Source: Escherichia phage vB_EcoS_HdH2. From it: a stretch of 64,000 bases of DNA. A program made the translations under genes and the position numbers. Each line of letters begins with the position of its first letter. Position 1 is the first letter of the stretch. The notes beneath the pieces are model-generated. The model was not told the origin of the DNA, did no database searches, and saw only the letters and a program-made list of their open reading frames with translations. The stretch is from the sequence record NC_048748.1, one strand, 5' to 3'. Of the stretch, positions 7,991 to 64,000 are shown in pieces.

Positions 7991-8000
7991 ATAAATGTAT

Positions 8001-9211: not shown

Positions 9212-9261
9212 TACATAACCCTTTGCTACCCATCTACCATATCGGAATTATAAAGTGGTTA

Positions 9262-9290: not shown

Positions 9291-9354
9291 ATTATCATTC
9301 AGTTGAGGGATAGAAAGTTATGGCGAGGGTAAGCAAAGTTAATTAAAATTGTAG

Positions 9355-9383
9355 TTGCTAAATGCTTAAATACTTGCTATAAT
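9355..9383 (+). promoter_or_regulatory. sigma70-type early promoter
   Basis: TTGCTA, 17-bp spacer, TATAAT, then ATTTATATAAATTGATAAGGAAG. Confidence 0.7.
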
Positions 9384-9413
9384 ATTTATATAAATTGATA
9401 AGGAAGAAATTTG

Positions 9414-11032: not shown

Positions 11033-12505
11033 ATGACCTTGTTTAACGTGCAAGCTGTAGTGTTGAAGATGCTTCTAGCTTCCGAACAGAAGCAAATAGC
11101 ATTGGAAACATTCTCAAAACTGCATAAAGATCATTTTAATGACGCTTTCTCCTCAATTTACCAAGCCGTCCAGAATTATTATAAAAAATATAACACAATG
11201 CCGTCCATTGACGCACTTATGCTTGAAGCTAATAGGAACGCCCGCCTTTCTCAAGCTCTAGTCGTCTTAGCTAACACTCAAATTCCAGAAGTGAGCATGG
11301 AACAGGCACTTGAAGTCCTAGAAGCCGAATATACACAGGATTTATTCCTGAAGCTTCTAGAAACAGACGTGCTTCAAGATTTAACAATGCTGGATCAGGG
11401 AGAAATTCTCAACCGAGTTGCCTCCCTTCACTTAAAATTAGAAGAGAAAGTAACGAATACTGGAAAAGTATTCAACGCAGATAACATGCGTATTTTCCAG
11501 AGAGAAGAAGATACCAAACTGAACTTAATCGCTCTTGGTATTTGTAATGAGTTCGACGCTCAAATCGGTTTAGCTCGCACAGAAACGTTACTGCTTGGTG
11601 GTTGGCGTGGTACTGGTAAATCCATTATCTGTTCAAACATACAGGTTCAGCAATATTTGAATGGGGATATTGCTCCATACTTCTCAATTGAGATGAAAGA
11701 ACATGAAGTATTTAGACGTAATCTAGCCATGTTAGCTGGTGTATCAGCATTAGCAATGCGTAATAATACTCTAGAAGGTGCACCTCTATTGAGATTAGCC
11801 AGAACTAGAGCTAGAATGTTTAATGGGGGTGAAGAGCTTTTCGACAACTTCGTTAAACAGTACACAATGGCTAAGATGAGTGATTTCTACGATATGGAAA
11901 GTAAGCTAATAGAAGGGTATGAGCTACATACTCCTATGATTATTGTTTATGATCCTGAGCTGTCTATTACAACAGTTGACGTAGAATTAAATAAATTAGT
12001 TGCTAGATATGGGGATAAAGTTACAGTAGCTTTATTGGACTATATTAACCAAACCCGACTTCCAGATTCTAAAACCATTGATATGTATGACTGGAAAGAA
12101 CAGATGGTTGTTAGCTCGTCTTTCAAATCTATCTGTCAGAAACATAACGTGGCTGGTGTAGCTCCTTACCAGATCGATCAAGATGGTAGAACACGTATGT
12201 CAAAAGGGATTCTTGATTCCGCAGACATGGCTGCTAATCTTAATGCTGCAAAAGCTGATAATGGTCAAGGTGCTATTATGTTTGACTTCGTTAAGACCCG
12301 TTCTTCTGATAGCGTGAAGTTTATGCCTAAAATGAACTGGGAAACCCTGCGGATGGATAACACTACCAACCTAGCAATGGAAGATATATCTCAAATGGAA
12401 GCTGAGTTCGTTATCCCTATTGAGAAGGATAAGCCAGCTCAATCTAAACGTGCTAAGAAAGACAAAGCTGAAAATTCAACAGGTGAACAGGCCAGCGATA
12501 TATGA
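11033..12505 (+). CDS. DnaB-like (RecA-fold) replicative helicase; start uncertain
   Basis: Walker A LLLGGWRGTGKS about 190 aa from N-terminus; ORF-track start 10982 lies inside the upstream terminator hairpin, so ATG 11033 (after AAGGAG) is preferred. Confidence 0.6.
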   Translation: MTLFNVQAVVLKMLLASEQKQIALETFSKLHKDHFNDAFSSIYQAVQNYYKKYNTMPSIDALMLEANRNARLSQALVVLANTQIPEVSMEQALEVLEAEYTQDLFLKLLETDVLQDLTMLDQGEILNRVASLHLKLEEKVTNTGKVFNADNMRIFQREEDTKLNLIALGICNEFDAQIGLARTETLLLGGWRGTGKSIICSNIQVQQYLNGDIAPYFSIEMKEHEVFRRNLAMLAGVSALAMRNNTLEGAPLLRLARTRARMFNGGEELFDNFVKQYTMAKMSDFYDMESKLIEGYELHTPMIIVYDPELSITTVDVELNKLVARYGDKVTVALLDYINQTRLPDSKTIDMYDWKEQMVVSSSFKSICQKHNVAGVAPYQIDQDGRTRMSKGILDSADMAANLNAAKADNGQGAIMFDFVKTRSSDSVKFMPKMNWETLRMDNTTNLAMEDISQMEAEFVIPIEKDKPAQSKRAKKDKAENSTGEQASDI

Positions 12506-13035
12506 TAACACAGGAACGACTAAAAGAACTGTTTGACTACTCCCCAGAGACTGGGGAGTTTATTAGAAAAGTATCTAGAGGCAGCCAGAAAGCCGGGAGT
12601 ATAGTAACTAGAAAGGATTCAAACGGTTATATAATTATCGGTATAGATGGTAGGGATTATAAAGCCCATCGTATGGCCTTCCTATTTATGGAAAACACGT
12701 TACCTGAAAAAGTAGACCATGTAAATAGAATACCCTTTGATAACCGATGGTGTAATCTAAGAGACGCCACAGCCCAGGAAAATAGTAGAAATAAAACCGC
12801 ATGTAGTAAGTCTGGATATTTGGGAGTTGCTTGGGATATAGAAAAACAAAGATGGAGAGTTCAAGTAAGAGACTCTAATAGCACTCTTAAAAATGGTGGC
12901 AGATTTAAGTATGAAGAGCTAGAGCTAGCTGTAAATTCAGCAAATATATTAAGGGCTAAGTTACATGGAGAACGTGCTGTTATAGAAATTTTTGATACAT
13001 CTAATTATCCTTCGCTGGAGGAGTTAAATTCATGA
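12502..13035 (+). CDS. free-standing HNH homing endonuclease with AP2-like DNA-binding domain
   Basis: HNH motif AHRMAFLF...DHVNRIPFDNRWCNLRDAT; AP2-like YLGVAWDIEKQRWRVQVR; ATGA overlaps at both ends. Confidence 0.8.
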   Translation: MITQERLKELFDYSPETGEFIRKVSRGSQKAGSIVTRKDSNGYIIIGIDGRDYKAHRMAFLFMENTLPEKVDHVNRIPFDNRWCNLRDATAQENSRNKTACSKSGYLGVAWDIEKQRWRVQVRDSNSTLKNGGRFKYEELELAVNSANILRAKLHGERAVIEIFDTSNYPSLEELNS

Positions 13036-13922
13036 GTAGAATAACAGAGTTACTTGATCTAAAAGGAATTGAGTACAAGGATACAGGCGGGGATATTCTT
13101 ATATGCTGTCTCAATCCAGATCATGACGATAAACACCCGAGTTTGCGTATTGACCCTGAAACAGGTATTATGCACTGCTTGAGTTGTGGCTTCGGTAAAG
13201 GTATACCGAGCATTTACCATTATTTTAATGAGACTCAGTACAGACAGTCCCCAAGGCTATCGCAAGTACGTAAAAAGATTTCAGAGATTAGGAATGGATC
13301 AACGAATCTTGCAATTCCTGAATCTGCTTACCTTTTCGAAGGTGATTTCCGAGGTATAAGTTCTAAGACCTTGAAGAAATATTTTGCTTTCCAACATCAA
13401 GCAGACTGGGAAGGCAGAATTGTATTCCCAATCACAGATGCTGTTGGACGCAATATCCTATTTTTGGGTCGTTCTATAAACAGTTCTGCCCCTCCTAAAT
13501 ACTTAGTAAAACCAAAACAAGTTTCACCACCAATTTTTCCTGTACGATATAATACTCCAGTTCTTATTCTAGTTGAAGGCATCTTTGATATGCTGAACCT
13601 AGAGGATAATGGTATAGACTATGCTTCTTGCTGCTTTGGTACACATCAGTTTACTTCGGATAACATTGCAGATAAGTTCAGTCCTTACATTATTGCCGGT
13701 GTAAAAGTTGTTGTTATCTTACTAGATAATGATGCTTCTGGTAATAAAGCTGCACAAGCACTGGCCAAGCTAATTCGTACAAAAACGCGTTTAACACCTG
13801 TAGTTGCTAACTTTCTTCTGCCTGAAGGTAAGGACCCTGGTGACTTAAATAAAGAAGAGATTGATATGTTAGCAAAACGTATTGAAATTTTAGTTGCTGA
13901 ATCGCTTAAAGATTTGGTATAA
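13032..13922 (+). CDS. DNA primase (zinc-finger plus Toprim)
   Basis: Zinc finger CCLNPDHDDKHPS...HCLSCG; Toprim-like LVEGIFD and LLDNDASG. Confidence 0.75.
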   Translation: MSRITELLDLKGIEYKDTGGDILICCLNPDHDDKHPSLRIDPETGIMHCLSCGFGKGIPSIYHYFNETQYRQSPRLSQVRKKISEIRNGSTNLAIPESAYLFEGDFRGISSKTLKKYFAFQHQADWEGRIVFPITDAVGRNILFLGRSINSSAPPKYLVKPKQVSPPIFPVRYNTPVLILVEGIFDMLNLEDNGIDYASCCFGTHQFTSDNIADKFSPYIIAGVKVVVILLDNDASGNKAAQALAKLIRTKTRLTPVVANFLLPEGKDPGDLNKEEIDMLAKRIEILVAESLKDLV

Positions 13923-20680: not shown

Positions 20681-22499
20681 GACACTAAAATTTAGTAACG
20701 TTATGTCTTACGGTAAGGACATCGTAATTCATTTCGATAAGAATCCAGTTACTCAACTAATTGGTGGCAATGGGCTAGGGAAATCCACCATCGCTACGGT
20801 TATCGAGGAATTGTTTTATAACAAGAACTCACGTGGTATTAAGAAAGATGCTCTGTTCTCTTGGAATGCCCCTAAGAAAGAATACGATATGCACGCTTAC
20901 TTTTCAAAAGATGATGATGAGTATGAGCTGCATAAAGTAGTTAAGTCAACTGCTAAAGTAACGTTGATTAAGAATGGGGAAGATATTAGTGGACATACGG
21001 CAACCCAAACATACAAGATAATTGAAGAGATTATGGGTGGTGACTTTCAAACATTCACCAAACTGATTTATCAATCAGTGGGTTCCAACCTAGATTTTCT
21101 AAAAGCAACAGATGCAACACGTAAGGCTTTTCTTGTTAACTTGTTCAATCAAGAGCAATACAAAGAAATGTCGGAAACTGTTAAGGCTGACCGTAAAGAA
21201 ATAGCAAATACCTTAAATAATTTGCAGGGCCAGATGGCTGTAATTACGAAAATCCTTAATGGGAAAAATAATCTCGGGAGTTTACAGGAACCGGTTGAAG
21301 TTCCTGAGTTTGATGAAGAACCATTAGCACAAGAACTTACTGAATCGAAAATTAAGGCGGCATTAGCCAAGTCTCAAGAGGCTAATATTACTAAATTGCG
21401 TAATTTGGACAAAGCTGTACAAGTTGCCGAACAATCTTTCGAGCCTTTCAAAAATTTGCCCGCGCCCACTGACCAAAACGAAGAGATCTCAAGTGTTACG
21501 CGTGACCTAACGATTGTGACCTCACGTGCGGGCGAAGTTAAGAAACGTTATCAGAAGTTCAAGCAAGAAGCTTCAAATACTGAATGCCCTACTTGTGGTA
21601 CTCATCTGGATACAACTGCTGCTCAAAAAGCAATGGATATGGCTAGAATAGAATATGATCCTCTGTTCAAAGAGAAGCAATCTCTTGAAGCTAAGCTAGA
21701 ACAGTTGAAGAAAGAACAACTTGAGTACGTTGCGTATACTAGAGCAAAGGATGCTTTGGATAAAGCGGTGGTAGCTAGAGACGAGTTCAAAAATTCAATG
21801 AGTGATGCTTCTTTTGAAGAACTCAATGTGCAAATCCTACAGGTGCAAATCCGACAATTAGAACAGGCAATCGCTGATGGACGTTCTAAGGTTGCAATTG
21901 CCAAAGAGCATAATGCAAATGTCGAATTAGCTAATGCAAAATATAAAGCGAAAATAGAACAGATTGAGAAAGCTGAAGCAGAAATGTCTGAGATTACTTC
22001 CAAACTGAATGGAGTATCAGAAGCTGTAGCTGATCTTGATATTCTAATTGCTGCTTTGAAAAATCTGGTGGGATATAAATTAGAGCATAGTGTGAAAGTA
22101 TTTGAAGAACTAATTAATAAATACCTTTCCATTATGACTGGAGGTAAATTCGCACTTGGATTTGAACTTGATGAAACAAAATTACAAGTAGTAATCTTCA
22201 ATGATGGAAACCGTACCAGTATGGAGAACTGCTCTACTGGTCAGCAAAGTCGAATTAATCTAGCAACATTGTTAGCGATTCGTATGCTGTTAACATCTAT
22301 TAGTAAAGTTAATATTAATCTTCTATTCCTTGATGAAGTAATTAGCTTTATTGATACGAAAGGACTTGATACTCTCGTTGAACTATTAAATGAGGAAGAA
22401 AGTCTAAATTCTATCATTGTTTCTCATGGGCATACGCATCCATTAGCTCATAAGATTACTGTCAAAAAAGATGCAGAAGGATTTTCCTACTTAGAATAA
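20661..22499 (+). CDS. SbcC/Rad50-like ATPase subunit (T5 D13-like)
   Basis: Start moved to ATG 20661 (MSKITIKTLKFSNV, typical Rad50 N-terminus); Walker A GGNGLGKST, zinc-hook-like CPTCG in coiled-coil, LLFLDEV near C-terminus. Confidence 0.8.
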   Translation: MSKITIKTLKFSNVMSYGKDIVIHFDKNPVTQLIGGNGLGKSTIATVIEELFYNKNSRGIKKDALFSWNAPKKEYDMHAYFSKDDDEYELHKVVKSTAKVTLIKNGEDISGHTATQTYKIIEEIMGGDFQTFTKLIYQSVGSNLDFLKATDATRKAFLVNLFNQEQYKEMSETVKADRKEIANTLNNLQGQMAVITKILNGKNNLGSLQEPVEVPEFDEEPLAQELTESKIKAALAKSQEANITKLRNLDKAVQVAEQSFEPFKNLPAPTDQNEEISSVTRDLTIVTSRAGEVKKRYQKFKQEASNTECPTCGTHLDTTAAQKAMDMARIEYDPLFKEKQSLEAKLEQLKKEQLEYVAYTRAKDALDKAVVARDEFKNSMSDASFEELNVQILQVQIRQLEQAIADGRSKVAIAKEHNANVELANAKYKAKIEQIEKAEAEMSEITSKLNGVSEAVADLDILIAALKNLVGYKLEHSVKVFEELINKYLSIMTGGKFALGFELDETKLQVVIFNDGNRTSMENCSTGQQSRINLATLLAIRMLLTSISKVNINLLFLDEVISFIDTKGLDTLVELLNEEESLNSIIVSHGHTHPLAHKITVKKDAEGFSYLE

Positions 22500-49003: not shown

Positions 49004-50320
49004 TTATTTACCACGGGAAATAGAATAAATTCCATAGCGGAGCGCATCACAAAGGTGAGAGTTAGCATCATGACGTGGTTTTTCACGTGATAATTTCTCT
49101 TCGCCTTCTTGGAAGTCCCACTTATAGTTCTGCAATGCATGAATTAAGGAGGAACATGAGGCATCCACAATAATTTTCCCTTGCTGAAATAACGCTTGCA
49201 AACATGCTAGGCCATCTAGGACAGATTTTTTAGCTGGAGCTGATGCAATTTCGTGCTCATAAGCTAAGTCCTGGCGGAACTGAGCGGCGGCAGAGTCAAC
49301 AAAAATACGATCAACTTTATAACGATTTATACAATGCTGAATATAAGCAGCATGCTGGGCTGTAGTTTTTTCCGCCTGCTGGTACTCTTCTAATACATAG
49401 TAAGTATCCGTATCGTAATGATATTTAATAGTAAGAACTGCTGTAGGATCACGATAACCAACGTCAATACCAAGCAATGTTTCGAATGCTTCATCATCTT
49501 TAAAGAAGTGACGCATACCTTTGAGGTCTTTAACATGATCGATAGCATTAAAGGTATCGAAGATCTGACCTTCGAATACAGAGAAGTCAGCCTCGTATTC
49601 TTGGCGGAAGTAGTTTTTACTAACAGTACGACGTGCTTCCTCAATATCATTCAGGTCAGCACGTGGATTATCACGATATGTACCATGAATAGATACCCAG
49701 TTAGGTAATGTATCATCAAATCCATAGGCATAAAACTCTTTAAACCAGTTACCACCACGAGGAGTAGAGATAAATAGAGCCTTAGAATTAGGCTTATCTA
49801 GAGTAGGACGCAGCTGAACTCTAAAGGCATCACCACCTACATCGGAAATTGCCGCCTCGTCAAAAATGATAAAGTCATATGAACGTCCAACTGCGGAGTC
49901 AGCCTGAGCAGCGGAAGCTAGTTTAAACAGAGAACCATTAGCTAACTCAATTTCCTTATCTTTAGCGTTCTCACGTTCAGTTTGTAGGCCATATTTTTTA
50001 ATAAGACCACGAATCTGAGACCATCCGATGTTGGCCAGTGAATAGTTAGGAGCAACTACTAACACCTTCACATTAGGTTCCAGCAATTTTAGGAACCCAA
50101 GAGTATATGCGATGAAGGATTTACCTACACGGCGTGATACACACGCCGTTACAAAACGATGTCTAGGGTCCTCTAGAGCATTAATAATCGCTATTTGAGG
50201 ACCATTAGGTGTAATACCTTCTTGTGCTAGTATTCCCGAAACAGGTAGACGAAAGAAACGTTTATCTATTCCGAAATCAATAACATCTACTGTATTAACG
50301 TAAGGTCTTGATACTTCCAT
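49004..50320 (-). CDS. terminase large subunit
   Basis: 438 aa; Walker A CVSRRVGKSF, Walker B YDFIIFDEAA. Confidence 0.9.
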   Translation of the reverse strand: MEVSRPYVNTVDVIDFGIDKRFFRLPVSGILAQEGITPNGPQIAIINALEDPRHRFVTACVSRRVGKSFIAYTLGFLKLLEPNVKVLVVAPNYSLANIGWSQIRGLIKKYGLQTERENAKDKEIELANGSLFKLASAAQADSAVGRSYDFIIFDEAAISDVGGDAFRVQLRPTLDKPNSKALFISTPRGGNWFKEFYAYGFDDTLPNWVSIHGTYRDNPRADLNDIEEARRTVSKNYFRQEYEADFSVFEGQIFDTFNAIDHVKDLKGMRHFFKDDEAFETLLGIDVGYRDPTAVLTIKYHYDTDTYYVLEEYQQAEKTTAQHAAYIQHCINRYKVDRIFVDSAAAQFRQDLAYEHEIASAPAKKSVLDGLACLQALFQQGKIIVDASCSSLIHALQNYKWDFQEGEEKLSREKPRHDANSHLCDALRYGIYSISRGK

Positions 50321-50802
50321 TACTTCTTACCTCCAGTAGCTAGGGAAGTAATTAAGTCCATGTAGTTTTGATCCCCAGCTCCAGCAATAATATTATTCTG
50401 GATGTTGGTCTGATTGGCTGGAGTACGGGCTGCTGCCTTCACTTTCTCCAGTTCTACCATCATTTTCATTTCTTCCATCTTCATCTTGTGTGCCTTCCAG
50501 AGAATGTCCATAATATCCTGGTCAGAACCCATGCCGGTTTCTTCTAGTTCCTCCAGCTTACGCTTGATAACTTCATCCAGAACACCAAATAAACGATCCC
50601 TATTACGGAAACCACTCTCCATAAAAATATCGTTTAAGTAGTTTTTAACTTCACTACGATTCATAATATCTCGGAAAGCAATTTCAGACATTCCAAGACT
50701 ACGTGCCGCAGAAGGCACATCGCTACCACACTGTAAATAAGCTTCAATCACATCCATCCCTTCAGGGGACATAAGATCTGGTACTAATACATCATTTGCC
50801 AT
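50320..50802 (-). CDS. terminase small subunit (by position)
   Basis: 160 aa immediately upstream of large subunit; AGGAGG SD. Confidence 0.5.
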
Positions 50803-53793: not shown

Positions 53794-53898
53794 TTGGGAA
53801 ATCTCGAAATTTCATAAGATTACACATGGAGGTGTGTCCAGTGGCCCCCCAGATGAGAATGAGTCTCATTACCGCCCGTTACTATTACCATGCTAACT

Positions 53899-53935
53899 GT
53901 TTCACCCTGCAACCATTTTAATTGCAAGGTGAAAC
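53899..53935. other. 13-bp-stem hairpin between convergent genes
   Basis: gtttcaccctgcaa / ttgcaaggtgaaac (one mismatch); no flanking U-run. Confidence 0.4.
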
Positions 53936-53952
53936 AATATCAACTTTAATTA

Positions 53953-54687
53953 TTACGCAACTTTTAATTTCTCGATATATTGTTGCGGGCTGCAACTATA
54001 TTCTGCGCGTTCTTCTTCTGTCATACTTTCCCAACATAATTGCAAGCGATCGGCTAGGAACTGATAATCATTATCATCCTCAAGAGATTCATCAATAAAG
54101 GTTTCACCTATCAATGTGACGCCGATTGATAGAATATCGTTAATAGCTTGCGCGTCCAGCGTTTTAAATCCATATGATGCCGCCGCTGATAGCACGCCTT
54201 TATGATCGTCGATCATCGTGAAATCAGCGTTCGGGTATAGCTGTTTGAATAGCTCAAAATAATGGCTTTTATAAATAGCGTCCTTACTGTGGTATATTTC
54301 GCTAACTTTATCAGCCGTAAAATATTTGTGAAGTGTATCGCGGGAAAATACACGGATATTACTATCCCCACGCCCTCGCAATCCTTGCTTGCGCAAATAA
54401 TAATAGTCCGACTTGCTCATCAGTCGAGCGGTACAAATAATGTTTAACGTGTTGGCGTCATTCATGCACTGGCGCATATATGTAACAAGCGGCAATAAAG
54501 TATCCTGCATTATTAAATCATGTTTACATGCTTCATTTTTATACTTATTTAAATCTAAATTCCCATCGCTATCAAAGCAAGGCGCTACGCGATGAAATGA
54601 ATTGATGATTGTTCCGTCCAGATCCCAAATCATGACGCGGGAAATATGCGGGAAATTACGGGTAATATTCGTTTTAACTTGATTCAT
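53953..54687 (-). CDS. dmp: HAD-family phosphatase, candidate 5'-deoxyribonucleotidase (dmp-like)
   Basis: 244 aa; HAD motif I MIWDLDGTIINS; located in pre-early-type block with A1-like gene. Confidence 0.5.
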   Translation of the reverse strand: MNQVKTNITRNFPHISRVMIWDLDGTIINSFHRVAPCFDSDGNLDLNKYKNEACKHDLIMQDTLLPLVTYMRQCMNDANTLNIICTARLMSKSDYYYLRKQGLRGRGDSNIRVFSRDTLHKYFTADKVSEIYHSKDAIYKSHYFELFKQLYPNADFTMIDDHKGVLSAAASYGFKTLDAQAINDILSIGVTLIGETFIDESLEDDNDYQFLADRLQLCWESMTEEERAEYSCSPQQYIEKLKVA

Positions 54688-54761
54688 TTTGTTACGTTCT
54701 CCGTTTAAGGGATTAAATTAAATTAATCCAGCCCACTGGATGGGCCGGACTATTCCAGCTA

Positions 54762-55154
54762 TTAAAGACCATAAGCCAACGCATCAGCGATAAAACTAAT
54801 ATCCTCACCTGATACATCGGAACGGATGCCCGCGCATGTAAATACCTTCGCGCTCATTAGCTGATCATCAAGGCAAGCGGGGCAAGGGGCAACTACTGCG
54901 AAAGCTAACCCCGATTTCACCGCGTCGATGATAGTCGTTTCTTGTTTCATCGTGTCAATATAAACGCCTTTCGCCTTGATGCGGCTGGATAGTTTGCCCG
55001 TGGTATAGGCAAAGGTAGTAACCTGCAAAGCGTCATTAAAATCTAATAGGTCATCAACAACGTGCCCCGCCTCAACGTGATACCGCTCACCATTAGAATA
55101 AACTAGGACGATGGAAGAATGAGCGCGATCGAATGGAATATTTTGCTTTTTCAT
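54762..55154 (-). CDS. hypothetical pre-early protein (A2 position)
   Basis: 130 aa, downstream of A1-like gene. Confidence 0.4.
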   Translation of the reverse strand: MKKQNIPFDRAHSSIVLVYSNGERYHVEAGHVVDDLLDFNDALQVTTFAYTTGKLSSRIKAKGVYIDTMKQETTIIDAVKSGLAFAVVAPCPACLDDQLMSAKVFTCAGIRSDVSGEDISFIADALAYGL

Positions 55155-55175
55155 ATTTATAAAACTCCAATTAGT

Positions 55176-55685
55176 TTAATAAGGGATATTAAATTCTTTA
55201 CACTTTGATTTAACCCATTCTAAAAGAATAGATAAATCATAATTGCCTTTTGAAACATATTTATTTGTTATAGGGTTTTTAATTTTTGCCCTGTAATATT
55301 CTCCCGCTATGGGATCAACTTTATCAAGATAAATATATTTCGGTAGTTTATTACGCCTTTTATAATCACTCTTATTTGTCATATTAACCGCATGAGTAAC
55401 TAGGCGTAAATTATTTATATCGTTGTTAACGGGGTAAGAAATTATTTTATGATCTATATCTAAATCAGGGTTAATTTCTTTATTAAATAAAACCCAAATT
55501 AAACGATGAGCTTTATATAATTCACCATTAATCATTACATCATAATAGCCTGTCTGATTTAATGTTCCCGCTACACTTCCAGCTTTCACACCGGGCTTAC
55601 TTATTTTCCATCGTAAAAATGATGGGCTAGATTCATCATAATAAACATTCTCGTTAACTTCATTAAAATCTATTTCTTTTGCCAT
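55176..55685 (-). CDS. free-standing HNH homing endonuclease
   Basis: YKAHRLIWVLF...DIDHKIISYPVNNDINNLRLVTHAVN; paralogue of 59474..59821. Confidence 0.75.
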   Translation of the reverse strand: MAKEIDFNEVNENVYYDESSPSFLRWKISKPGVKAGSVAGTLNQTGYYDVMINGELYKAHRLIWVLFNKEINPDLDIDHKIISYPVNNDINNLRLVTHAVNMTNKSDYKRRNKLPKYIYLDKVDPIAGEYYRAKIKNPITNKYVSKGNYDLSILLEWVKSKCKEFNIPY

Positions 55686-55755
55686 TTATATTCCTCCAAT
55701 TAATATTATCTCATTAATTGGAGGATTTAGGCAAATAAGGTTTTAATTTATCGGC

Positions 55756-57429
55756 TTACTGTACAAAGAATTTACCGTTCTTAAAGTCGATCAAAGTACG
55801 CTGGCCGTTCGCATAGGTAATAACATGCGTTTGCGTCCAGCTTGACGCGCCAACGTTGTAACCCATATCCAGACTACCAGACACGCCGGCAGTGTATACG
55901 CCGCCGTAAATGCTGGCGGTGTGAGTGTGCCCCGTGTTTAATTTGCCCAATTTCTTAAATTGCTTCGGATTGCCACGGCTCCCGTTAATGCCATTGTGAC
56001 CGTGTACGCCGCATTCAATGCCTGCAATTTTAAATGATTGGTCAGTGGTCAGGAAAATAGCGTTAAATTCACAACCTGCAACCTTGCGCAGCGCATAATC
56101 TAGCACGTTGAAAGTATCGTCTTTTTCTGCAATAGCTCCGTAAATCGCAGCATTAAGGCGGTGATATAGTTCCGCGTTGGCTGGATCGTCTTTAATGTTA
56201 GCATTACGATCATCAAGCCAACGGGATAACGCCAGATCATGGTTAGATTCAACAATGATCGTTTGAGCAAAATCGCGCTCCATTGATTCCAGTACGCGCC
56301 CGGTATCGATCAAATCATCAATAACCTTATCACGTCCGGCGGCGTATTGTTTTGCTAGGAATACACCAGACGCACGATTATGATGATTGCGTGATGTAAA
56401 ATCATGCACGTCATGCACAAACTGATATTTTGGCTTCAGAATATCAACAAGCCCGTAGGTGTCACCATGCCCCCACGACGCAGCGGCGCACTCCTCATCT
56501 AATTTTTCAGCGTGAATATCGCCATATTGTAAACCTAAAACGTGCCCCGTTGTTTCATAGCATCCGGCGGGAGTGGCGCAAATATTCAAATCGTAAAACA
56601 TGCCGCTTTCGTCCATCGTTTCAAGCTGGCGAACAAAAAATTCCCCGTCCTCGTCGAACTCAACGACAAGCGCACCAAAGTTATGTAGCGCCTCGGCCTT
56701 TTGCCCTGCTTTCTGCTGGATGTAGTTTTTAAGCGTTGCCGTGCCCGTTGAATACATGCGGCGCACTACTTCACCTTTTAAAGCTGGCACGCTTTCGGCG
56801 GTGATTTTAGCCGCCCCGATTGCCAGACCTTCCAGATTAAGCGCCGTTGCAGTTTCAGCGAATCCAGAAAGCGGATAATCTGCGGTAGGTAACACGTTAA
56901 TCTCCGCCATGAAAGCAAAACGGCGATTATTTAAAAACACGTTTTTGCTGCAAATATATTTATCAAATGCAGAATCATATTTGATTCCGTCCGCGCCCTC
57001 ACCATTTTGGAATCCGTTTTTATTATAAATATACTTAGAAACAAGCAAATCAGCGCCGATAAACTGGGCATATTGTTCAAGCGAGGCTAAAAAGTTTTTA
57101 TGCGGGAAAGTATTATTCTGAATCGAGGTAATAATAAAGCGTTTGCCTTGTTTTACTTCCCAGCTTTCCACCGTGCTAGAAATAACTCCGGCGGCTTCAG
57201 GGCGGTCATCGTTTTTAATAGCTTTTACAGTTTTTGCCGCTTTTGGTTTCGCTGGTTTATTTGCTTCCAGCCAATCACAAATAGCGGTGGAATGCTTTGG
57301 AGTATCGTAAACCGCTTTCGAAATATCGTCGCATACTTCCAGTTTAGTAGCGCGCAGACGTTTACCATAGAAATTGAAGTCAGCGGCAAGGTTCAGGATA
57401 ACGGTTTGTTTTTCTGCGGAAATAATCAT
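55756..57429 (-). CDS. A1: A1-like pre-early protein, calcineurin-type metallophosphoesterase
   Basis: 557 aa; motifs GLQYGDIHAEK, VESNHD, GVHGHNG, GHTH. Confidence 0.7.
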   Translation of the reverse strand: MIISAEKQTVILNLAADFNFYGKRLRATKLEVCDDISKAVYDTPKHSTAICDWLEANKPAKPKAAKTVKAIKNDDRPEAAGVISSTVESWEVKQGKRFIITSIQNNTFPHKNFLASLEQYAQFIGADLLVSKYIYNKNGFQNGEGADGIKYDSAFDKYICSKNVFLNNRRFAFMAEINVLPTADYPLSGFAETATALNLEGLAIGAAKITAESVPALKGEVVRRMYSTGTATLKNYIQQKAGQKAEALHNFGALVVEFDEDGEFFVRQLETMDESGMFYDLNICATPAGCYETTGHVLGLQYGDIHAEKLDEECAAASWGHGDTYGLVDILKPKYQFVHDVHDFTSRNHHNRASGVFLAKQYAAGRDKVIDDLIDTGRVLESMERDFAQTIIVESNHDLALSRWLDDRNANIKDDPANAELYHRLNAAIYGAIAEKDDTFNVLDYALRKVAGCEFNAIFLTTDQSFKIAGIECGVHGHNGINGSRGNPKQFKKLGKLNTGHTHTASIYGGVYTAGVSGSLDMGYNVGASSWTQTHVITYANGQRTLIDFKNGKFFVQ

Positions 57430-57526
57430 AGTAATAAAGCTCCATTAAAGGGATTAAAAACGTTTGTTATTGGCAAATATTGCCAGATATAACGCCGCTT
57501 ATTTACAGCGTTATAACTTGCAATAT

Positions 57527-57772
57527 TTAACTAATCGGCATAAGGCTAGAACTAACACCACAAGCAACGGCGGCAATAAAGCAAAGTAAGCCCAACCGCT
57601 TTGCTAATTTAGATTTACGTTTAAAATAATATGAATCTAAATCATTTTGAAAATAAGCGAACAATAATGAGGCCGCTACAATAAATAAGCCTAAAATTAG
57701 CGATTCAGTGGGGTAAAAGATCATTTTAATAACTCCAGTCAAAGGGAAATTATAGTGGGGAATATTCCCCAC
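57527..57772 (-). CDS. small membrane protein
   Basis: 81 aa; two hydrophobic helices. Confidence 0.5.
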   Translation of the reverse strand: MGNIPHYNFPLTGVIKMIFYPTESLILGLFIVAASLLFAYFQNDLDSYYFKRKSKLAKRLGLLCFIAAVACGVSSSLMPIS

Positions 57773-57781
57773 TAATTAAAT

Positions 57782-58189
57782 TTATTCGCCTGCGGCTTGT
57801 TTTACTTCATCGGCAACGCCTAACAGCTGCGCCACGGCGTCCAACGTTTCTAATTTTGCGCTTTCCAGTGATGCCAGATCGTCAACGTCTTTGATAATGC
57901 CGGAATCAATGGCATGTTTAGCGATAACACGCACATAATGCGCTTTACGAATGGAACTGCCGCCGCCAACTTTACGCGGCTTATCGCTTTTCTGATACGC
58001 TTTCGCGCTGGTCAATTTTGAGCGAACGGACACGGGGGAGGCCGCACCTACTGCTTTCGCAATCTCTTTCAAGCCGTCGCTATTTGCGAAATCTAAACCG
58101 TTTTCATTGATTAGCTGCTGATACATGGAAACAGCCTGCTGGGTGTTTTCTTCATTCCAAGAAAATTTTGCGGTTTTAACGTTAGTCAT
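57782..58189 (-). CDS. hypothetical pre-early protein
   Basis: 135 aa; AGGAG SD. Confidence 0.55.
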   Translation of the reverse strand: MTNVKTAKFSWNEENTQQAVSMYQQLINENGLDFANSDGLKEIAKAVGAASPVSVRSKLTSAKAYQKSDKPRKVGGGSSIRKAHYVRVIAKHAIDSGIIKDVDDLASLESAKLETLDAVAQLLGVADEVKQAAGE

Positions 58190-58290
58190 GATTATAACTC
58201 CTATTGAATTAATTTAAGGGATAAGATTAACATAATGTTAATCGTTATATCCCCCGAACTACTGGGGGATATAAAAGTAACACTATAAAC

Positions 58291-58542
58291 TTATGCTACA
58301 GCTTCCCATTTTTCGTTACGCTGGATAACCTTTACAGCGTCGCCGGATTTAACCCGAACGCTATAAATAGTTTTTCCGTTGTTACTCCGTTCCGTTTCAG
58401 CGTATACCGCATCAATTACATCAAACGGCATAAGCGCCGCGCCTTTGATGCGTTCGGTTTTTCCGGTTGCCTCATCCGTTTTAGTAACGAAAGGAATAAA
58501 AACGGATTGACCAATTTTAGGCGCATTAGTAACGTTTTGCAT
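58291..58542 (-). CDS. hypothetical small protein
   Basis: 83-aa ORF. Confidence 0.45.
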   Translation of the reverse strand: MQNVTNAPKIGQSVFIPFVTKTDEATGKTERIKGAALMPFDVIDAVYAETERSNNGKTIYSVRVKSGDAVKVIQRNEKWEAVA

Positions 58543-58774
58543 AGTATAAACTCCAGTTTATTTAGTGGATTGTTCCGCATTACCTGCTGTAAAAGTAGTG
58601 GCAGGTAATAAGTAACAATCCGCTCGCCATTATAATCAATTTAAGGAACTCCACTCAGGCCGCTATATCCCAGTTAGGGGGCGGGGCACATTATGGCAAG
58701 TACCGGCCGTCAAATTTTATCAAGTTATCGCTCTCATCGAACTGGGTACATCTTAAAGCCTATCGGCTAGGGTG

Positions 58775-58978
58775 TCAAACAATTTTTTGCAGTTTTTTAT
58801 GATTCTCTTTCAAGTCAATCATAATATTGCGCCAGATCATTTCCAACCCTTGCTGGCGGCCTTTCTTGTACTGCGTGAATCTATATTTTACGGATTGCTG
58901 AGCTATTGTCAACAATTTTTTAGTAGTACCATCCAATTTTTTGGCTGGTTTACCAGTTATTAAAAGCGTTTGTTTCAT
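58775..58978 (-). CDS. hypothetical small basic protein, enclosed by 24-bp inverted repeats
   Basis: 67 aa, Lys-rich; AAGGA SD. Confidence 0.4.
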   Translation of the reverse strand: MKQTLLITGKPAKKLDGTTKKLLTIAQQSVKYRFTQYKKGRQQGLEMIWRNIMIDLKENHKKLQKIV

Positions 58979-59473
58979 ATCTGCGATTCCTTATATAATT
59001 GATAAGTTTACCGCCGATAGACTTTAAGATGTACCCAATTTTTAAAGAGCGCGGCGGTAAACTTTCCCGCCGTGTAGTTCGTCATTGCCGCCCTACGAGA
59101 TAAATAATAGGGGATACCCAAAAATGGCGCAACCTTATTTTTGTAAAGAAATGTAAAGAAGGCAACACGCCCGGCGCTCACATAAGTTTAAAGGAAACGG
59201 GCGCGCGGATACCACAAAACACAGCAGATAGGCAAGTAATTTTTTCATTTATATTTGCCTTGCCCTACTTGACAAAACTTAAAAAGCTCGTGGTAGCGAT
59301 AAACGAGGGTAGGCAATGCAATGGCATACCTGAAAATTTTACCGCTTTCTAGGGCGTTTTAGGCGGCCTAAAATTGATTTAACAAATATTTAACAACTGC
59401 AAAATTGAAAAATAGTTGGAAAAGGTATTGACTTTTAAAAATCAAGACTAAATGAGTTATTTTATAAAATTAA

Positions 59474-59821
59474 TTAATTGACTTTCTTTTTATATTGTGA
59501 AGGCCGGTTTTTATTGTTTTCGGCCTGCGTTACTTGTCTAAGGTTATCCCCTTTATTATTTAGCTTGTTACGATCAATATGATCAATCATTAGATTACTA
59601 TCTATTTCACCATGTAATAGTAACCATACGACACGATGTACTAAATAACATTCTTTATTAAGTCGAACGATATAATAACCTTGTGAATAGTAAGTACCTG
59701 CAACTGTATCTTTCCTAACTCTTCCCTTATTGACTTTCCAGCGTAGTGACGTTTTCGATGTTTCATCATAATAAAAGTAATGATTAAACAAGTCATAATC
59801 CATTTCTTTATATTTACCCAT
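59474..59821 (-). CDS. free-standing HNH homing endonuclease
   Basis: YLVHRVVWLLLHG...DHIDRNKLNNKGDNLRQVTQAEN; N-terminus parallels 55176..55685. Confidence 0.75.
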   Translation of the reverse strand: MGKYKEMDYDLFNHYFYYDETSKTSLRWKVNKGRVRKDTVAGTYYSQGYYIVRLNKECYLVHRVVWLLLHGEIDSNLMIDHIDRNKLNNKGDNLRQVTQAENNKNRPSQYKKKVN

Positions 59822-59876
59822 TGTTATAGTTTCCTTATGTTATTAATTTAATCTCTATTATATTATATCAAAACCA

Positions 59877-59959
59877 TTAGCAGACTACCTAATGAGTTTT
59901 TCAAGTTTAATTAGCAGACTACTAATCCCGGAAAATCTCATTAGCCAACTAACTATTTC
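59877..59959 (+). repeat. three direct repeats of TTAGC(A/C)(G/A)ACTA(C/A)
   Basis: Copies at 59877, 59911, 59941 in the intergenic region upstream of the HNH gene start. Confidence 0.6.
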
Positions 59960-60085
59960 TTGAGTTATAATATAAATATAAATTAATGAGAAATAATCAC
60001 TATAAAAATAATCACTACGATAATAATAACAACAAGAAACTATCGGCCTAAGTGAGAACCACTATCATTTAAGTTATTCACAAAG

Positions 60086-60181
60086 TTATCCACAGCACAA
60101 AATGATTTGACACGATAGGCGGCGATATACGGGCTTATCCACAGACTTATCCACAGGTTATCCTACTGTATAAATATACAG
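60086..60181 (+). promoter_or_regulatory. left inverted-repeat module: three DnaA boxes plus a LexA-like SOS box
   Basis: TTATCCACA at 60086, 60135, 60147; CTGTATAAATATACAG at 60166..60181. Confidence 0.7.
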
Positions 60182-60448
60182 GGTAGAAAGGTAGTGTTAA
60201 CGACTGCAATCAATTTTATGCCGCCTAAAACGCTTTCTAACGAGCTAAATGCGGTGGGGTAATATTAAAGTAAAGCCGCAACGCGTCGCCCTGGTGGCTT
60301 CGCCGTGTTTTGCTCTTTACTATGCCGCTGCGCGGTTAGCATAAAACTAGGTGTTAGGCAAGGAAAATAAAAAGGTAAAATAATATTTGCCCCTAGAAAG
60401 AAAATACCTTTATCATTCACTCACCGATTAACGAGGGAGGCCGAACAA

Positions 60449-61426
60449 ATGAGGCTTTATAAACCAGATAACGCAACCGTCTTAAAAGGTGCATTGCGCA
60501 ACCTGCTGGATGGTAGCAGAACAACCAGCATTAAACACTTTGTTAACAAGGCCGAAGATATTCACCAAAATTTTTTTGATGATTTCGACGCCTATGATAT
60601 GAGTAGCTTTTTGCAACTATATAAGCAAGGGGCAACGATTATCTTATATAATCGAGATAATCACCTGCTTACTAGCAGGGGGCCGGACACTGATTTCATA
60701 ATCGTAAAAGGTAACACAGTAAAAGCCTATGATACTGGGGCGGGCTTAGAAGTTTTTTCAATAGAAAACTATGAAGCCAACCCCAATGATCTTTATGACG
60801 TTGAAAACTTTCTTGATTCATTTTGGCGTTATTTATCCGTTGGCTGGAATCGGTCAATTGGTGACGGGTATCGTCTGGCGGCTGTAATGGCTTTTGATGA
60901 TAACGGTAATTTTTTGTTACCGTCGGAAGTATACCCATACGTATATGATGGGGATATAGAAAGCGCGGGCTTTTCTTTCTGGAAGGAGGAGGATCAGCCT
61001 ATTGACAACACGGAAAAACATGCTGTAAATTCTAACACTCAAACCATTGAAAACAAAGGAAAAAATGCCATGACCAAGATCGCTAATATCGTTGCCGCTA
61101 ATAAGTCCGCCGTTGTAAATGCTGCAAAACTGGAAGCGGGTAAAATTGCACTGACTCAAATTACGAAAGTAGCGGCTAAAAAAGCACCGTTTATTATCAA
61201 GGGTTATATTGATACGCCGATTGGTCGGGTAGTGATTGCCAACCTGCTGAGCGTAGCGGTTGACCAGTACTCCCCTAGCAACCAAAAGGCGAAAGCGGTA
61301 GCGGATGCAGCTATGGAAGCGGCTATGTTAGAAATGGTACAAAGTTTTAACATCGCTGAAATGATTGACGAAATGGTGAAAGGTATTGATATTTCTACTT
61401 TTACCGTTAACACCGAAAACGAGTAA
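60449..61426 (+). CDS. hypothetical protein
   Basis: 325 aa; GAGG SD; terminator downstream. Confidence 0.65.
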   Translation: MRLYKPDNATVLKGALRNLLDGSRTTSIKHFVNKAEDIHQNFFDDFDAYDMSSFLQLYKQGATIILYNRDNHLLTSRGPDTDFIIVKGNTVKAYDTGAGLEVFSIENYEANPNDLYDVENFLDSFWRYLSVGWNRSIGDGYRLAAVMAFDDNGNFLLPSEVYPYVYDGDIESAGFSFWKEEDQPIDNTEKHAVNSNTQTIENKGKNAMTKIANIVAANKSAVVNAAKLEAGKIALTQITKVAAKKAPFIIKGYIDTPIGRVVIANLLSVAVDQYSPSNQKAKAVADAAMEAAMLEMVQSFNIAEMIDEMVKGIDISTFTVNTENE

Positions 61427-61451
61427 TAGTTAACCTAGTGTAAAGTTTTGT

Positions 61452-61480
61452 AAAGGTCGCCATAATCGGCGACCTTTTTT
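61452..61480 (+). terminator. intrinsic terminator
   Basis: aaaggtcgcc-ataat-cggcgaccttt followed by tttttt. Confidence 0.7.
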
Positions 61481-61544
61481 GTTATAATGCCTTTACACCG
61501 TTCGAGGACGGTTGAAAATTTTCCCAAAAATTTGGAGGCTTAAA

Positions 61545-61775
61545 ATGGTTGCTTATTCTTCTTCTGACTCTCTTTTCACTGGAAAAGGTTGGGTGTCCAA
61601 TCGCTGGATCATTCAAGAAATGGTGCAAGAATACGGCATTGCTAAAACTTACACTACCATTCAGGCGCTTTATGATAATGATCAGATTGATCAGCAGACA
61701 GCTGGCTTTTTGCTGGATACCCTGAAGGCGGAACATTGTACTAAAAAACAAGCCGCCAAAATCGTTTTAATGTAA
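61545..61775 (+). CDS. hypothetical small protein
   Basis: 76 aa from ATG 61545 after TGGAGG. Confidence 0.5.
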   Translation: MVAYSSSDSLFTGKGWVSNRWIIQEMVQEYGIAKTYTTIQALYDNDQIDQQTAGFLLDTLKAEHCTKKQAAKIVLM

Positions 61776-61821
61776 TTAATAACGGGGCGTTATTTTCGCC
61801 CCACTAACTAGGAGAATGAAA

Positions 61822-61968
61822 ATGGTTATTTTTCGAGCTATTCTGGCGGGTATCTTGGGCGCTATTTTATCTTTGTTTGCAATAGCTTTCGACGTTCACG
61901 CGGTTATTATTGGCGCGGGTATCGCTGTTTTTTCTTATTTGCTGGGCTGCATGAATAAAGGAGAATAA
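61822..61968 (+). CDS. small membrane protein (48 aa)
   Basis: AGGAG upstream; MVIFRAILAGILGAILSLFAIAFDVHAVIIGAGIAVFSYLLGCMNKGE. Confidence 0.5.
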   Translation: MVIFRAILAGILGAILSLFAIAFDVHAVIIGAGIAVFSYLLGCMNKGE

Positions 61969-61970
61969 AA

Positions 61971-62183
61971 ATGATCCGCAACGTTTCTCTTGCTCGTTCA
62001 AAAGGTTTTAAGCTGGTGGACGTTAACACGTTCGAACGGGAAGATTGTAAAATCGAATATATAGCACGGAATAAAAACGCCTTCCGTGTTACAGAAAAGA
62101 AATTCGATAAACGGGGTAACGTGATAGCTGAAACGGTTAAATATTTTGCCACCTTTTACGCTGCGTTTCGTGGGGTACTATGA
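61971..62183 (+). CDS. hypothetical small protein
   Basis: 70 aa, AAAGGAG upstream. Confidence 0.5.
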   Translation: MIRNVSLARSKGFKLVDVNTFEREDCKIEYIARNKNAFRVTEKKFDKRGNVIAETVKYFATFYAAFRGVL

Positions 62184-62305
62184 AAAGCGTTATTGTTATT
62201 CTCCTTGCAATGGTTGGCGGTTTTACCGCCACCTTATTTAAGAATGATCCCCTTTTACTGGGGATTTTTATGCTTTTATCTGGTTATCTGATCGGGAGGT
62301 TATAA
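62180..62305 (+). CDS. small membrane protein (41 aa)
   Basis: ATGA overlap; MKSVIVILLAMVGGFTATLFKNDPLLLGIFMLLSGYLIGRL. Confidence 0.45.
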   Translation: MKSVIVILLAMVGGFTATLFKNDPLLLGIFMLLSGYLIGRL

Positions 62306-62306
62306 A

Positions 62307-62651
62307 ATGGTAATTTATGAGGGCAACCGCTTTGTTACTAATTGCCGCCCGGCATTATTAGCAAACTACTTAAACCAGCTTTCACCTGAATATAAGGGCG
62401 TTGTTAATATTTACGAGGGAAAAGCGCATTATAAGATTAATGCGGTCGTTGCCCGTGAACTAGCATTTCAATTTTTGACCTTCGCATCGTGTGATATTCA
62501 GGTCATGGGTGAAGCATTAATAGCAGAAAATGAAGACGATTTTATTAATATTTTCCGCAAGGTATGCACCGAGCGCCTGATCATGAAAGGTGTATATATT
62601 CAATCAACGGCGGAAAGTATTGAAACGGCTTTTCGAAAGGTGGCACAATGA
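62307..62651 (+). CDS. hypothetical protein
   Basis: 114 aa; GGGAGG SD. Confidence 0.55.
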   Translation: MVIYEGNRFVTNCRPALLANYLNQLSPEYKGVVNIYEGKAHYKINAVVARELAFQFLTFASCDIQVMGEALIAENEDDFINIFRKVCTERLIMKGVYIQSTAESIETAFRKVAQ

Positions 62652-62753
62652 GATTATATATTTTCGCGGGTAATGTTGAGGCTGCAAATGATTCCGCTGG
62701 TGGCGATAATGTTCGCCACTATTGGCAAAAATATATTTACTAGGAGCTATATA

Positions 62754-62948
62754 ATGGGCAAGAATATTATTGTGACCAAAATCAGTACAATGGTTGACGT
62801 TTTTTACGTGCCCGATACGCCAGAAAACCGGCAAGCGGTCGAGCGGGGCGATTATGGTAGCGTTATTTATGATCACGATGGCTATTATCGGCATTTGGTC
62901 GATTCCTATGGGGAGGAGGAGAAGATCACGCATCGACTACCAGACTAA
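62754..62948 (+). CDS. hypothetical small protein (start uncertain)
   Basis: ATG 62754 after AGGAG; ORF track extends the frame to 62673. Confidence 0.45.
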   Translation: MGKNIIVTKISTMVDVFYVPDTPENRQAVERGDYGSVIYDHDGYYRHLVDSYGEEEKITHRLPD

Positions 62949-63025
62949 TAATCACGGGGCGCAACTATCAGGGAGTGCCCCAATTCCCAAATGAGAATCA
63001 TTCTCATTTGACCGCGCCCGTGATG

Positions 63026-63093
63026 GTTAGCCCGCTAACGATTAGGGTGTTACGTGTTGCCTTGTGTGATCGTTAGCGGGCTAACTAATTTTT
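63026..63093 (+). terminator. large hairpin plus T-run after the small-gene operon
   Basis: gttagcccgctaacg ... cgttagcgggctaac (15-bp arms, ~30-nt loop) followed by taattttt. Confidence 0.45.
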
Positions 63094-63205
63094 AAGCCTC
63101 CTCCAATTTTGCCCTTGTTTTAGTATCCCCACCAAAATTAAACGCGTTAGAATGCGATTCAGGACGTTTTAGCGGTATATTAGAATTATTCACTACATAG
63201 GAATA

Positions 63206-63313
63206 CTGTATAAATATACAGTAGGATAAGCTGTGGATAAGTCTGTTAATAACGCCTCAAAATGGCTAGGATTCTGTCAAGTCAAATCGTGCTGTTAATA
63301 AGTCTGTGGATAA
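63206..63313 (-). promoter_or_regulatory. right inverted-repeat module: LexA-like SOS box plus two DnaA boxes
   Basis: TACTGTATAAATATACAGTA (19/20 to LexA consensus); TGTGGATAA at 63232 and 63305 (TTATCCACA on minus strand). Confidence 0.7.
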
Positions 63314-63511
63314 CTTAAATAACAGTGTTTCTCACTTCCATTCTTAAACGAGAATGATTCTCATTTGCATTCCACTGTCTAACCGATAATCATTTCCTTT
63401 CTTAAATGAGAATCATTTCACTTTTTGAATAGTTCTCATTTCACTTCTTAAATGAGAATCATTATCATTCGCATTCCACTTCTTAAATGATAATGATTCT
63501 CATTCAAAGTC

Positions 63512-63536
63512 GCAGGGCAATTGCCCTGCGCTTTTG
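63512..63536 (+). terminator. palindromic hairpin plus T-run
   Basis: gcagggcaattgccctgc followed by gcttttg. Confidence 0.5.
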
Positions 63537-63755
63537 TGCAAATCCGACATGTGCTCCAAGGGTTACGTGCTGGCGTGTATGTGCAAATCCGACAATTTTT
63601 GGTAGTGTGCAAATCCGACCCGAAAAATTTATAAATTCGTGAGAGTGACGAATCTGTCTCCTAAAAACTCCAGCAATCACGAACTGCGTTCGAATCCTGT
63701 GGAATTAGCTAGAGTATGTGCAAATCCGACATGTGTTGAGCTGTGCGAATCCGAT
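63536..63755 (+). repeat. five direct repeats of GTGC(A/G)AATCCGA(C/T)
   Basis: Copies at 63536, 63581, 63607, 63718, 63743 with irregular spacing. Confidence 0.7.
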
Positions 63756-63779
63756 GAAATTTTTGTGACTTCGATGAGA

Positions 63780-63940
63780 GGGTGTGTGATTGTATAGGTT
63801 TGAGGAGAAGATGAGAGAGCGAGAAAAATTTGGGAGGCTAGAAGGATGTGGGTGCAGGATTGGTGCGGAGCACCTGATTTGCGGGGATTTTGGGGAAGAG
63901 TTGAGAAGATTTGGGAAGATTTGAGATAGGTGCAGAAAAA
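63780..63940 (+). repeat. purine-rich strand-asymmetric tract with GATTTGGGAAG-type repeats
   Basis: About 160 bp almost devoid of C on the plus strand; repeated gagaagat and tttggg(g)aag units; no ORF. Confidence 0.6.
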
Positions 63941-64000
63941 GCGAAATTTTATTAGCTAAATGGGGCAAAATAGCTTGACAAGTGAAAATTCTTGTGGCTC

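Follow-up and report, generated by a model that had tools for sequence, protein, structure and literature searches.

Since the 1960s, T5 has been known to inject its DNA in two steps, and two papers from 2026 describe the mechanism of stop and restart as poorly understood; a further question is how exact 10-kb terminal repeats arise in T5-type phages. A short non-coding locus of Escherichia phage vB_EcoS_HdH2 bears on both, and here we ask what it does. The locus consists of direct repeats followed by a C-depleted tract and is located at the end of a 64,000-nt stretch of the phage's sequence record (NC_048748.1; hereafter, "the window"). An earlier note, made from the letters alone, had seen in it five direct repeats and a purine tract without coding potential, and had offered a genome terminus, an injection stop, a nick-site cluster, and a replication priming region as candidate functions. 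By alignment to annotated T5 records, the locus is the non-coding right end of the ~10-kb terminal repeat of a T5-like phage and lies within the annotated "injection stop signal" (iss).

Across the 1.1 kb around the locus, identity to Tequintavirus is 90–92%, with 469 phage records matched, and a four-way alignment with T5, chee24, and K38 has a mean column identity of 87%. The PLSDB plasmids show no similarity to the same 1.1 kb, and we rejected a plasmid or iteron-plasmid origin on this ground. Synteny and distances fit a genome of ~122 kb whose last 64 kb is the window: the D2 helicase is found at 2741, and dmp, A1, and A2 fall within 53.9–58.2 kb. The single copy of the terminal repeat visible in the window is therefore the right-hand one. 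It spans 53835–64000 (plus strand; 10,166 bp) and includes the dmp open reading frame (ORF; 53953–54687) and the A1 ORF (55756–57429). Its left boundary, ...GGAGGTG|TGTCCAGTGG, is identical to the first bases in both T5 records, and the locus occupies its final 470 bp.

In the T5 RefSeq record (NC_005859), the iss is annotated at 9140–10149 and the left terminal repeat at 1–10219, and the minus strand has a major single-chain interruption at 9748/9749. In the four-way alignment, this iss transfers to 62955–63930, and the repeat end at 10219 transfers to exactly base 64000, so that the proposals of an injection stop and of a genome terminus both find their place here. T5 record AY587007 names palindrome J, "major single-stranded nick 1, 7.9%," "direct repeat D" (DRD) copies 1–6, "direct repeat A" (DRA) copies 2–3, the repeat end, and DRD copies 7–9 beyond that end. 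The iss, nick, DRD 1–9, DRA 2–3, and repeat end of the T5 annotations map base for base. The feature is thus already known, because every element of it is catalogued in the T5 GenBank records and the repeats are described in a preprint by Davison (bioRxiv 10.1101/866236), which reports "nine DRD repeats" in "Repeat Region 3" and no role assignable to DRD. Neither T5 annotation places a coding sequence here, and indels of 1 and 2 nt separate close relatives within the tract, in agreement with the absence of coding potential that had been noted. The 87-aa ORF that runs across the region on the minus strand is expected by chance, because the G-depleted strand leaves few stop codons.

The array contains four exact copies of TGTGCAAATCCGAC (63535–63548, 63580–63593, 63606–63619, and 63717–63730) and one degenerate copy, TGTGCGAATCCGAT, with two mismatches (63742–63755), all five on the plus strand, matching the count in the earlier note. 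By T5 numbering, these are copies 1, 2, 3, 5, and 6, and copy 1 begins 3–4 nt past the nick in every lineage with the nick motif. The array had been called irregular and not CRISPR-like, and this holds: CRISPR repeats have at least 23 nt and regular spacers of ~26–40 nt, whereas these repeats have 13–14 nt and start-to-start spacings of 45, 26, 111, and 25. The 111-nt gap contains a decayed sixth copy that is intact in T5. Alignment to T5, chee24, and K38 places this remnant of T5 copy 4 at ~63637–63657 (plus strand), with 5/13 positions matching in register, and DT571/2-type loci are likewise without copy 4 (at +107 from the nick). With up to two mismatches allowed, the 13-mer occurs seven times in the window compared with 0.83 expected, and none of 100 shuffles reaches seven.

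Five of these seven sites form the array, and the other two lie in tandem at 21827–21855 (plus strand), within the SbcC-like D13 gene, where they correspond to T5 DRD copies 11/12. This outlying pair is ~370 bp right of the homologue of T5 nick 4. In AY587007, the further copies are DRD 10 at 12073–12086 and DRD 11/12 at 79019–79048. T5-type genomes also have a single exact DRD in ORF019, ~2.4 kb right of the nick, which is kept across Tequintavirus and Epseptimavirus loci and absent from Klebsiella-type relatives. The intragenic copies in D13 and ORF019 are far too exact for chance. The window has no DRD copy near the left repeat boundary.

From 72 collected DRD copies, all 72 in one orientation, we derived an asymmetric consensus of 13–15 bp, (A)T-GTGC(A/g)AATCCGA(C/t)-(A), whose information content is inflated because the copies were picked by motif similarity. 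A literature search for the repeat sequence found no relevant paper. We considered DnaA as the protein that reads DRD, as the reverse complement ATTTGCACA fits TTWTNCACA at 8/9 positions. We judge this unlikely: the position where DRD varies between A and G falls on T4 of the DnaA box, which we take to be conserved, and the match leaves the conserved TCCGAC half unexplained.

To the right of the array, the plus strand at 63757–63950 is G-rich and C-depleted (38% G and 6% C, or 12 C in 194 nt; (G-C)/(G+C) = 0.72), leaving the minus strand C-rich and G-poor. The 5.6% C at 63753–63932 is the lowest 180-nt value in the 64 kb, where the mean is 19.6%, and no runs without C in the window are longer than two inside the tract (50 and 47 nt). 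The description "almost exclusively G/A/T" is therefore apt, while "purine" was loose, as the tract is 67% purine and 27% T. The GATTTGGGAAG units form about three loose copies of RATTT(T)GGG(G)AAG, at 63826, 63886, and 63908, and correspond to the annotated T5 DRA copies 2 and 3 (~63886–63925). The composition is kept while the sequence diverges in relatives L118, L035, Spivey, AAS21 (3% C), and Proteus phage 1.

Several other explanations gave negative results. No canonical G-quadruplex motif (four G-runs of at least 3, loops of at most 7–12 nt) was found in the window or in T5, with a G4Hunter maximum of 1.44 against a cut-off of 1.5; such motifs were found only in Klebsiella-type relatives. 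Helical phasing of the TTTGGG units, as a sign of bending, was not significant in six lineages (P = 0.07–1.0). Rfam covariance models matched nothing at the gathering score, and the sub-threshold matches were chance ones, all in the upstream palindromes. No promoter was found in the locus; a TTGACA at 63975 has no usable -10 element, here or in relatives.

This TTGAC belongs to a conserved terminus motif, TTGACAAGTGAAAATTCTTGTGGCTC (63975–64000, plus strand), of the form TTGAC-N21-GGCTC. The terminal repeat ends with the last base of this motif, which by mapping is also the physical right end of the genome. The two T5 sequences, which are independent, agree on both repeat boundaries. The Sepoy repeat end called by PhageTerm and the annotated end of SPC35 map to the equivalent of base 64000, and at least six IMG/VR contigs (L043, L059, L084, L090, L099, and L120) stop where the window stops. 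The divergent 122-kb genome L035/L079, which includes both repeat copies, ends 28 nt past TTGAC, with the motif TTGACAAATGAAAA. Altogether, the repeat or record ends ~26 nt after TTGAC, inside the module described below, in T5, Sepoy, SPC35, L035, and the six IMG/VR contigs. We found no convincing cut-site motif shared by both genome ends.

Across T5-like phages, these elements recur as a module. Counted from the nick, the T5-type layout has DRD at +4, +50, +76, +107, +188, and +213, the tract at ~+240 to +400, TTGACAAGTGAAAATTYCTGTGGCTC with its last base at the repeat end (+470), and DRD again at +557, +592, and +729. The copies left and right of the boundary number 6/3 in T5 and Sepoy, 5/6 in L118, 6/4 in Spivey (Klebsiella), 6/4 in L079, 5/3 in AAS21 (Pantoea), and ~8/2 in Cody (Vibrio). 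In Cody, the array surrounds GATTTTGGGGGATTTGGG...AATTGAC...GGGGGTCGCTCC. Across the lineages, the DRD motif is almost invariant although A1 identity drops to 32%, the value in Cody. In an IMG/VR scan for the exact 14-mer, clusters of at least three copies occurred only in T5-like contigs (100–123 kb). Proteus phage 1 (L132, MT679223, Novosibvirus) retains the nick motif, one degenerate DRD, the G-rich tract, and a TTGACAAAAATTT motif; its right-hand DRD array is replaced by ~10 tandem copies of GGGGAATAATAGAATGG (2.7% C; reverse-complement coordinates 12953–13110). This suggests that the iteron type at the junction can be swapped between lineages with the overall layout kept.

The earlier note had proposed comparing the terminal repeat boundaries of T5-like phages and had named a lack of conservation among relatives as part of what would refute it. 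What is new here is that, as judged from the aligned genomes, the module (nick, DRD array, G-rich tract, TTGAC...GGCTC motif, and further DRD past the boundary) is retained in T5-like phages of E. coli, Klebsiella, Pantoea, and Vibrio, that by the same alignments DRD arrays always flank the repeat boundary in the lineages examined, and that DRD is separate from the nick consensus. The terminal repeats range from 7.8 to 12.9 kb among lineages, and the boundary is always inside the module, which argues that the right end is locally specified. This comparative picture narrows the search for cis signals to a near-invariant 13-bp site, arrays that straddle the boundary, and a terminus motif, with the repeats set apart from the nick consensus.

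We take the identity of the element, the positions of the nick motif and genome end, and the deep conservation of the site and its arrangement at the boundary as established. Our favored interpretation, which we hold tentatively, is that the locus is a putative protein-binding array that marks the repeat/unique junction, for right-end recognition in packaging and probably also for stop and restart of DNA entry in the left copy. The DRD sites would be bound by one sequence-specific protein, probably phage-encoded, and this protein would assemble on both sides of the junction in replicated concatemers. With the help of the tract and terminus motif, it would fix the right-end cut and the start of packaging. 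By the rule of "last in, first out," the left end, ejected first, is packaged last, so that packaging should begin from the right; if it starts with a cut at the right boundary in concatemers, the module is therefore the expected place for terminase recognition. Consistent with a terminase site, the module lies where the mature genome end is cut, and repeated elements flank the boundary in all lineages examined; in the left-hand repeat copy of T5, three DRD sites stand just past the boundary. In the left repeat, the same sequence sits where first-step transfer halts and is probably part of the stop/restart signal, for example as the site of action of A2, an essential pre-early DNA-binding protein that the literature links to second-step transfer.

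A more specific version seems unlikely to us, although well short of negligible. Here, the DRD array, the G-rich tract, and TTGAC...GGCTC would form a cis site that specifies the right end (packaging initiation and repeat boundary) and whose reader is a single conserved protein of the phage (the small terminase subunit, A2, or D2), and the complex on the left repeat would halt and then release DNA entry. If this is true, one element, shared by Demerecviridae from enterobacterial to Vibrio phages, would serve both two-step injection and end generation. The ORF of the putative small terminase subunit (50320–50802) has no Pfam match.

Several points weigh against a junction-marking array. The annotated ends of some relatives lie elsewhere, with chee24 mapping to 63792 and K38 to 63972. 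The protein that reads DRD is putative, and no co-variation was seen between A2 conservation and the array: in Proteus phage 1, with only one degenerate DRD, A2 is well conserved. The flanking arrangement may be simple inheritance, so the lineages are not independent tests, and the direction of packaging is taken from the general rule only. The exact DRD copies in ORF019 and D13 are not explained by the junction model. Davison's preprint puts the stop signal in DnaA-box inverted repeats ~300 bp to the left and gives DRD no role.

Of the alternatives, the one that holds up best concerns the tract only and is compatible with other readings of DRD. The C-depleted tract is possibly, if somewhat doubtfully, a Rho-loading (rut) site that stops leftward early transcripts from reading through antisense into the pre-early genes. 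The two 78-nt windows with the strongest minus-strand excess of C over G in the 64 kb are both in the tract (34 C/2 G and 27 C/3 G). T5.018, T5.019, and their homologues lie on the minus strand, with no intrinsic terminator annotated between them and the repeat. In the left-repeat context and with the T5 gene order, the tract would thus be copied into unstructured RNA with the C-rich, G-poor stretch of at least 70–80 nt downstream of a transcription unit that is expected of a rut site. That the skew rather than the sequence is conserved in Klebsiella, Pantoea, and Proteus relatives also fits. However, TTTGGGG-type units persist even in the Vibrio phage, which suggests recognition of sequence, not of composition alone, and the right-hand copy in the window has no incoming transcription.

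A second alternative is that the array and tract act only in the left repeat, at the first-step arrest, where A2, alone or together with A1 or a host or virion protein, would bind DRD to hold or restart the DNA, and the position at the boundary would be incidental. We give this real weight and nevertheless think it unlikely. In its favor, the locus is inside the annotated iss of T5, the shear-defined end of first-step DNA (~7.9%, ~9.6 kb) falls at the repeats, virion DNA has all nine copies together nowhere but at the left repeat/unique junction, and the 2026 papers still list repeats as candidate stop elements. However, it leaves unexplained why the boundary lies inside the module in all lineages, despite repeats of such different lengths. 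Davison prefers the DnaA-box repeats to the left, the lack of co-variation with A2 counts here too, and the literature maps the stop no finer than ~1 kb, not to DRD.

A third alternative, which we consider very improbable, is that a phage initiator (e.g., the UL9-like helicase D2) uses the DRD copies as iterons, which would act with the DnaA boxes close by to initiate or prime replication inside the terminal repeat. The iteron-like array is ~300 bp from two consensus DnaA boxes, D2 (2741–5530) matches Pfam Herpes_ori_bp (30.5 bits against a cutoff of 20), and D2 has been proposed in the literature to act in initiation. The Pfam and PDB matches, however, cover the helicase motor of D2 (residues 389–533), not the DNA-recognition domain of UL9. 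What we take to be the UL9 box, GTTCGCAC, resembles the reverse complement of DRD variants (ATTCGCAC), a resemblance that we set aside, as there is no homology support in the DNA-binding domain. Electron microscopy put T5 origins near the genome center, as cited in a passage of the Davison preprint, and according to the same preprint, the replication genes are silent while only the repeat is inside the cell. The origin reading is weakly supported because the D2 matches are confined to the motor domain and the published origins are central, and replication priming as proposed in the earlier note comes down to a resemblance to iterons.

The nick that borders the array at its left edge has its own signal. 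The major nick site, CCCTGCGC followed by 31 nt and TTACGTG (63524–63569, minus strand), is placed by T5 annotation and mapping, and the nick is predicted between 63531 and 63532, 4 bp before DRD 1, leaving 5'-pGCGC. It is the homologue of T5 nick 1 (7.9%), that is, the 99.5% nick in the right-hand copy. The proposed nick-site cluster thus has its counterpart in the predicted nick at this place, which is one site rather than a cluster, with the repeats outside its consensus. Four distinct annotated major nicks of T5 (AY587007 9661, 22250, 39660, and 78651) share, beyond the published Pu|GCGC, a plus-strand bipartite pattern of CCC(T)GCGC, ~30 nt, and (A)TTACRNGTG, whose spacer at nick 1 is occupied by DRD 1. 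In the window, which has 79 plain GCGC sites, this pattern occurs only at 21459–21502 (the nick-4 homologue) and 63524–63569, with 0.01 expected. The bipartite unit is also present in Proteus and Vibrio T5-like phages. Nothing DRD-like lies within 150 bp of T5 nicks 2, 3, and 4, where the best match has at least 5/13 mismatches. DRD is therefore not part of the nick consensus, since nicks 2–4 are without it and another motif covers all four, and one well-defined, predicted nick site marks the left edge of the locus.

That the repeats target T5 nicking to this place is the least probable reading, and we disfavor it: "GCGC, 3 nt, DRD," with its 4 bp between nick and DRD 1, is kept even in Vibrio and Proteus relatives, and the D13 pair lies ~370 bp right of the nick-4 homologue, but nicks 2–4 have no DRD, the different motif CCC(T)GCGC-N30-TTACRNG is common to four nicks and by itself selects exactly the two expected sites in the window, and most DRD copies are distant from any nick.

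The nick may also explain a discrepancy among records. In the Salmonella phage Seafire (L135, MK050846; repeat_region 1–9592), the PhageTerm "repeat end" maps to ~63530, ~470 bp left of the terminus motif. This is the nick position, and a nick would give such read starts. Some T5-like records may therefore take nick-derived read starts for genome ends.

To the left of the nick, 63511–63530 (plus strand) is a perfect palindrome, GCAGGGCAATTGCCCTGC, followed by TTTT; this is "palindrome J" of T5 and the sole terminator-like hairpin in the region. The upstream half of the T5 iss and Repeat Region 3, as delimited by annotation transfer, repeats, motif scans, and the Davison preprint, lies at 62955–63510 and contains a LexA-box-like palindrome, two TGTGGATAA DnaA boxes (63232 and 63306), and Fur-box-like palindromes. 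The LexA-like sequence, TACTGTATAAATATACAGTA (63204–63223), fits the LexA (SOS) box consensus at 19/20 positions, and a weaker copy is found at 60164–60183. Its CTGT-N8-ACAG core is kept at this position in Klebsiella-, Proteus-, and Vibrio-infecting relatives, while T5 annotates it only as "palindrome D." The AATGAGAATCATTCTCATT-type palindromes at 62987–63507 (T5 "direct repeat C" and palindromes E–I) fit the Fur box consensus at 14–15/19 positions. Fur-box matches are ~20-fold enriched here, with 10 of the 24 matches in the window (at most 5 mismatches) within 0.59 kb. These boxes are intriguing, as the phage receptor FhuA is Fur-regulated; the Proteus phage keeps similar ones, and the Vibrio phage has another palindrome family.

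The Chi octamer, GCTGGTGG, occurs six times in the window compared with 0.8 expected, five times on the plus strand (62012–62019, 62696–62703, 9167, 10489, and 19844) and once on the minus strand (41459). Two Chi sites are thus 1.3–2.0 kb inside the right genome end and oriented for RecBCD entering there, and T5, L118, L035, Spivey, AAS21, Proteus phage 1, and Cody each have at least one Chi in RecBCD-readable orientation within ~0.3–4 kb of the right repeat end. We rejected Chi as an explanation of the C-depleted tract: an exact Chi is inside the tract only in L035, and elsewhere Chi is 1–4 kb inside the end. The Davison preprint mentions neither Chi nor LexA.

Like Rho rut sites, the tract is C-rich and G-poor over at least 150 nt on the strand that incoming early transcripts would copy; this likeness covers the tract, not the repeats, and the conservation of TTTGGGG exceeds what a compositional signal needs. 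With iteron origins and the herpesvirus UL9 oriS, the array shares irregular repeats of ~13 bp in the same orientation near DnaA boxes, in a phage that encodes a UL9-like helicase. It differs from them in having no adjacent initiator gene, in UL9 homology that is limited to the motor domain, and in the central mapping of T5 origins.

The closest counterpart is T5 Repeat Region 3/iss itself, which has ~91% identity and the same order of palindrome J, nick 1, DRD 1–6, DRA 2–3, and repeat end, downstream of the pre-early genes dmp, A1, and A2; unlike T5, the phage studied here has lost DRD copy 4. At the left repeat junction of T5, DRD 7–9 follow the boundary, and they are missing from the window because it shows the right-hand copy. 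Among phage packaging sites, lambda cosB has R-sites, and P1 pac has hexamer clusters on both sides of the cleavage region. As in these, the cut that generates the end has short repeated sites no more than a few hundred bp away, and as in P1 pac, repeats stand on both sides of the cut, with conserved sequence at the cut itself. The DRD copies differ in their wider spacing (~240 and ~90 bp from the cut) and in being all in one orientation. In contrast to cos or headful phages, T5 makes exact 10-kb terminal repeats.

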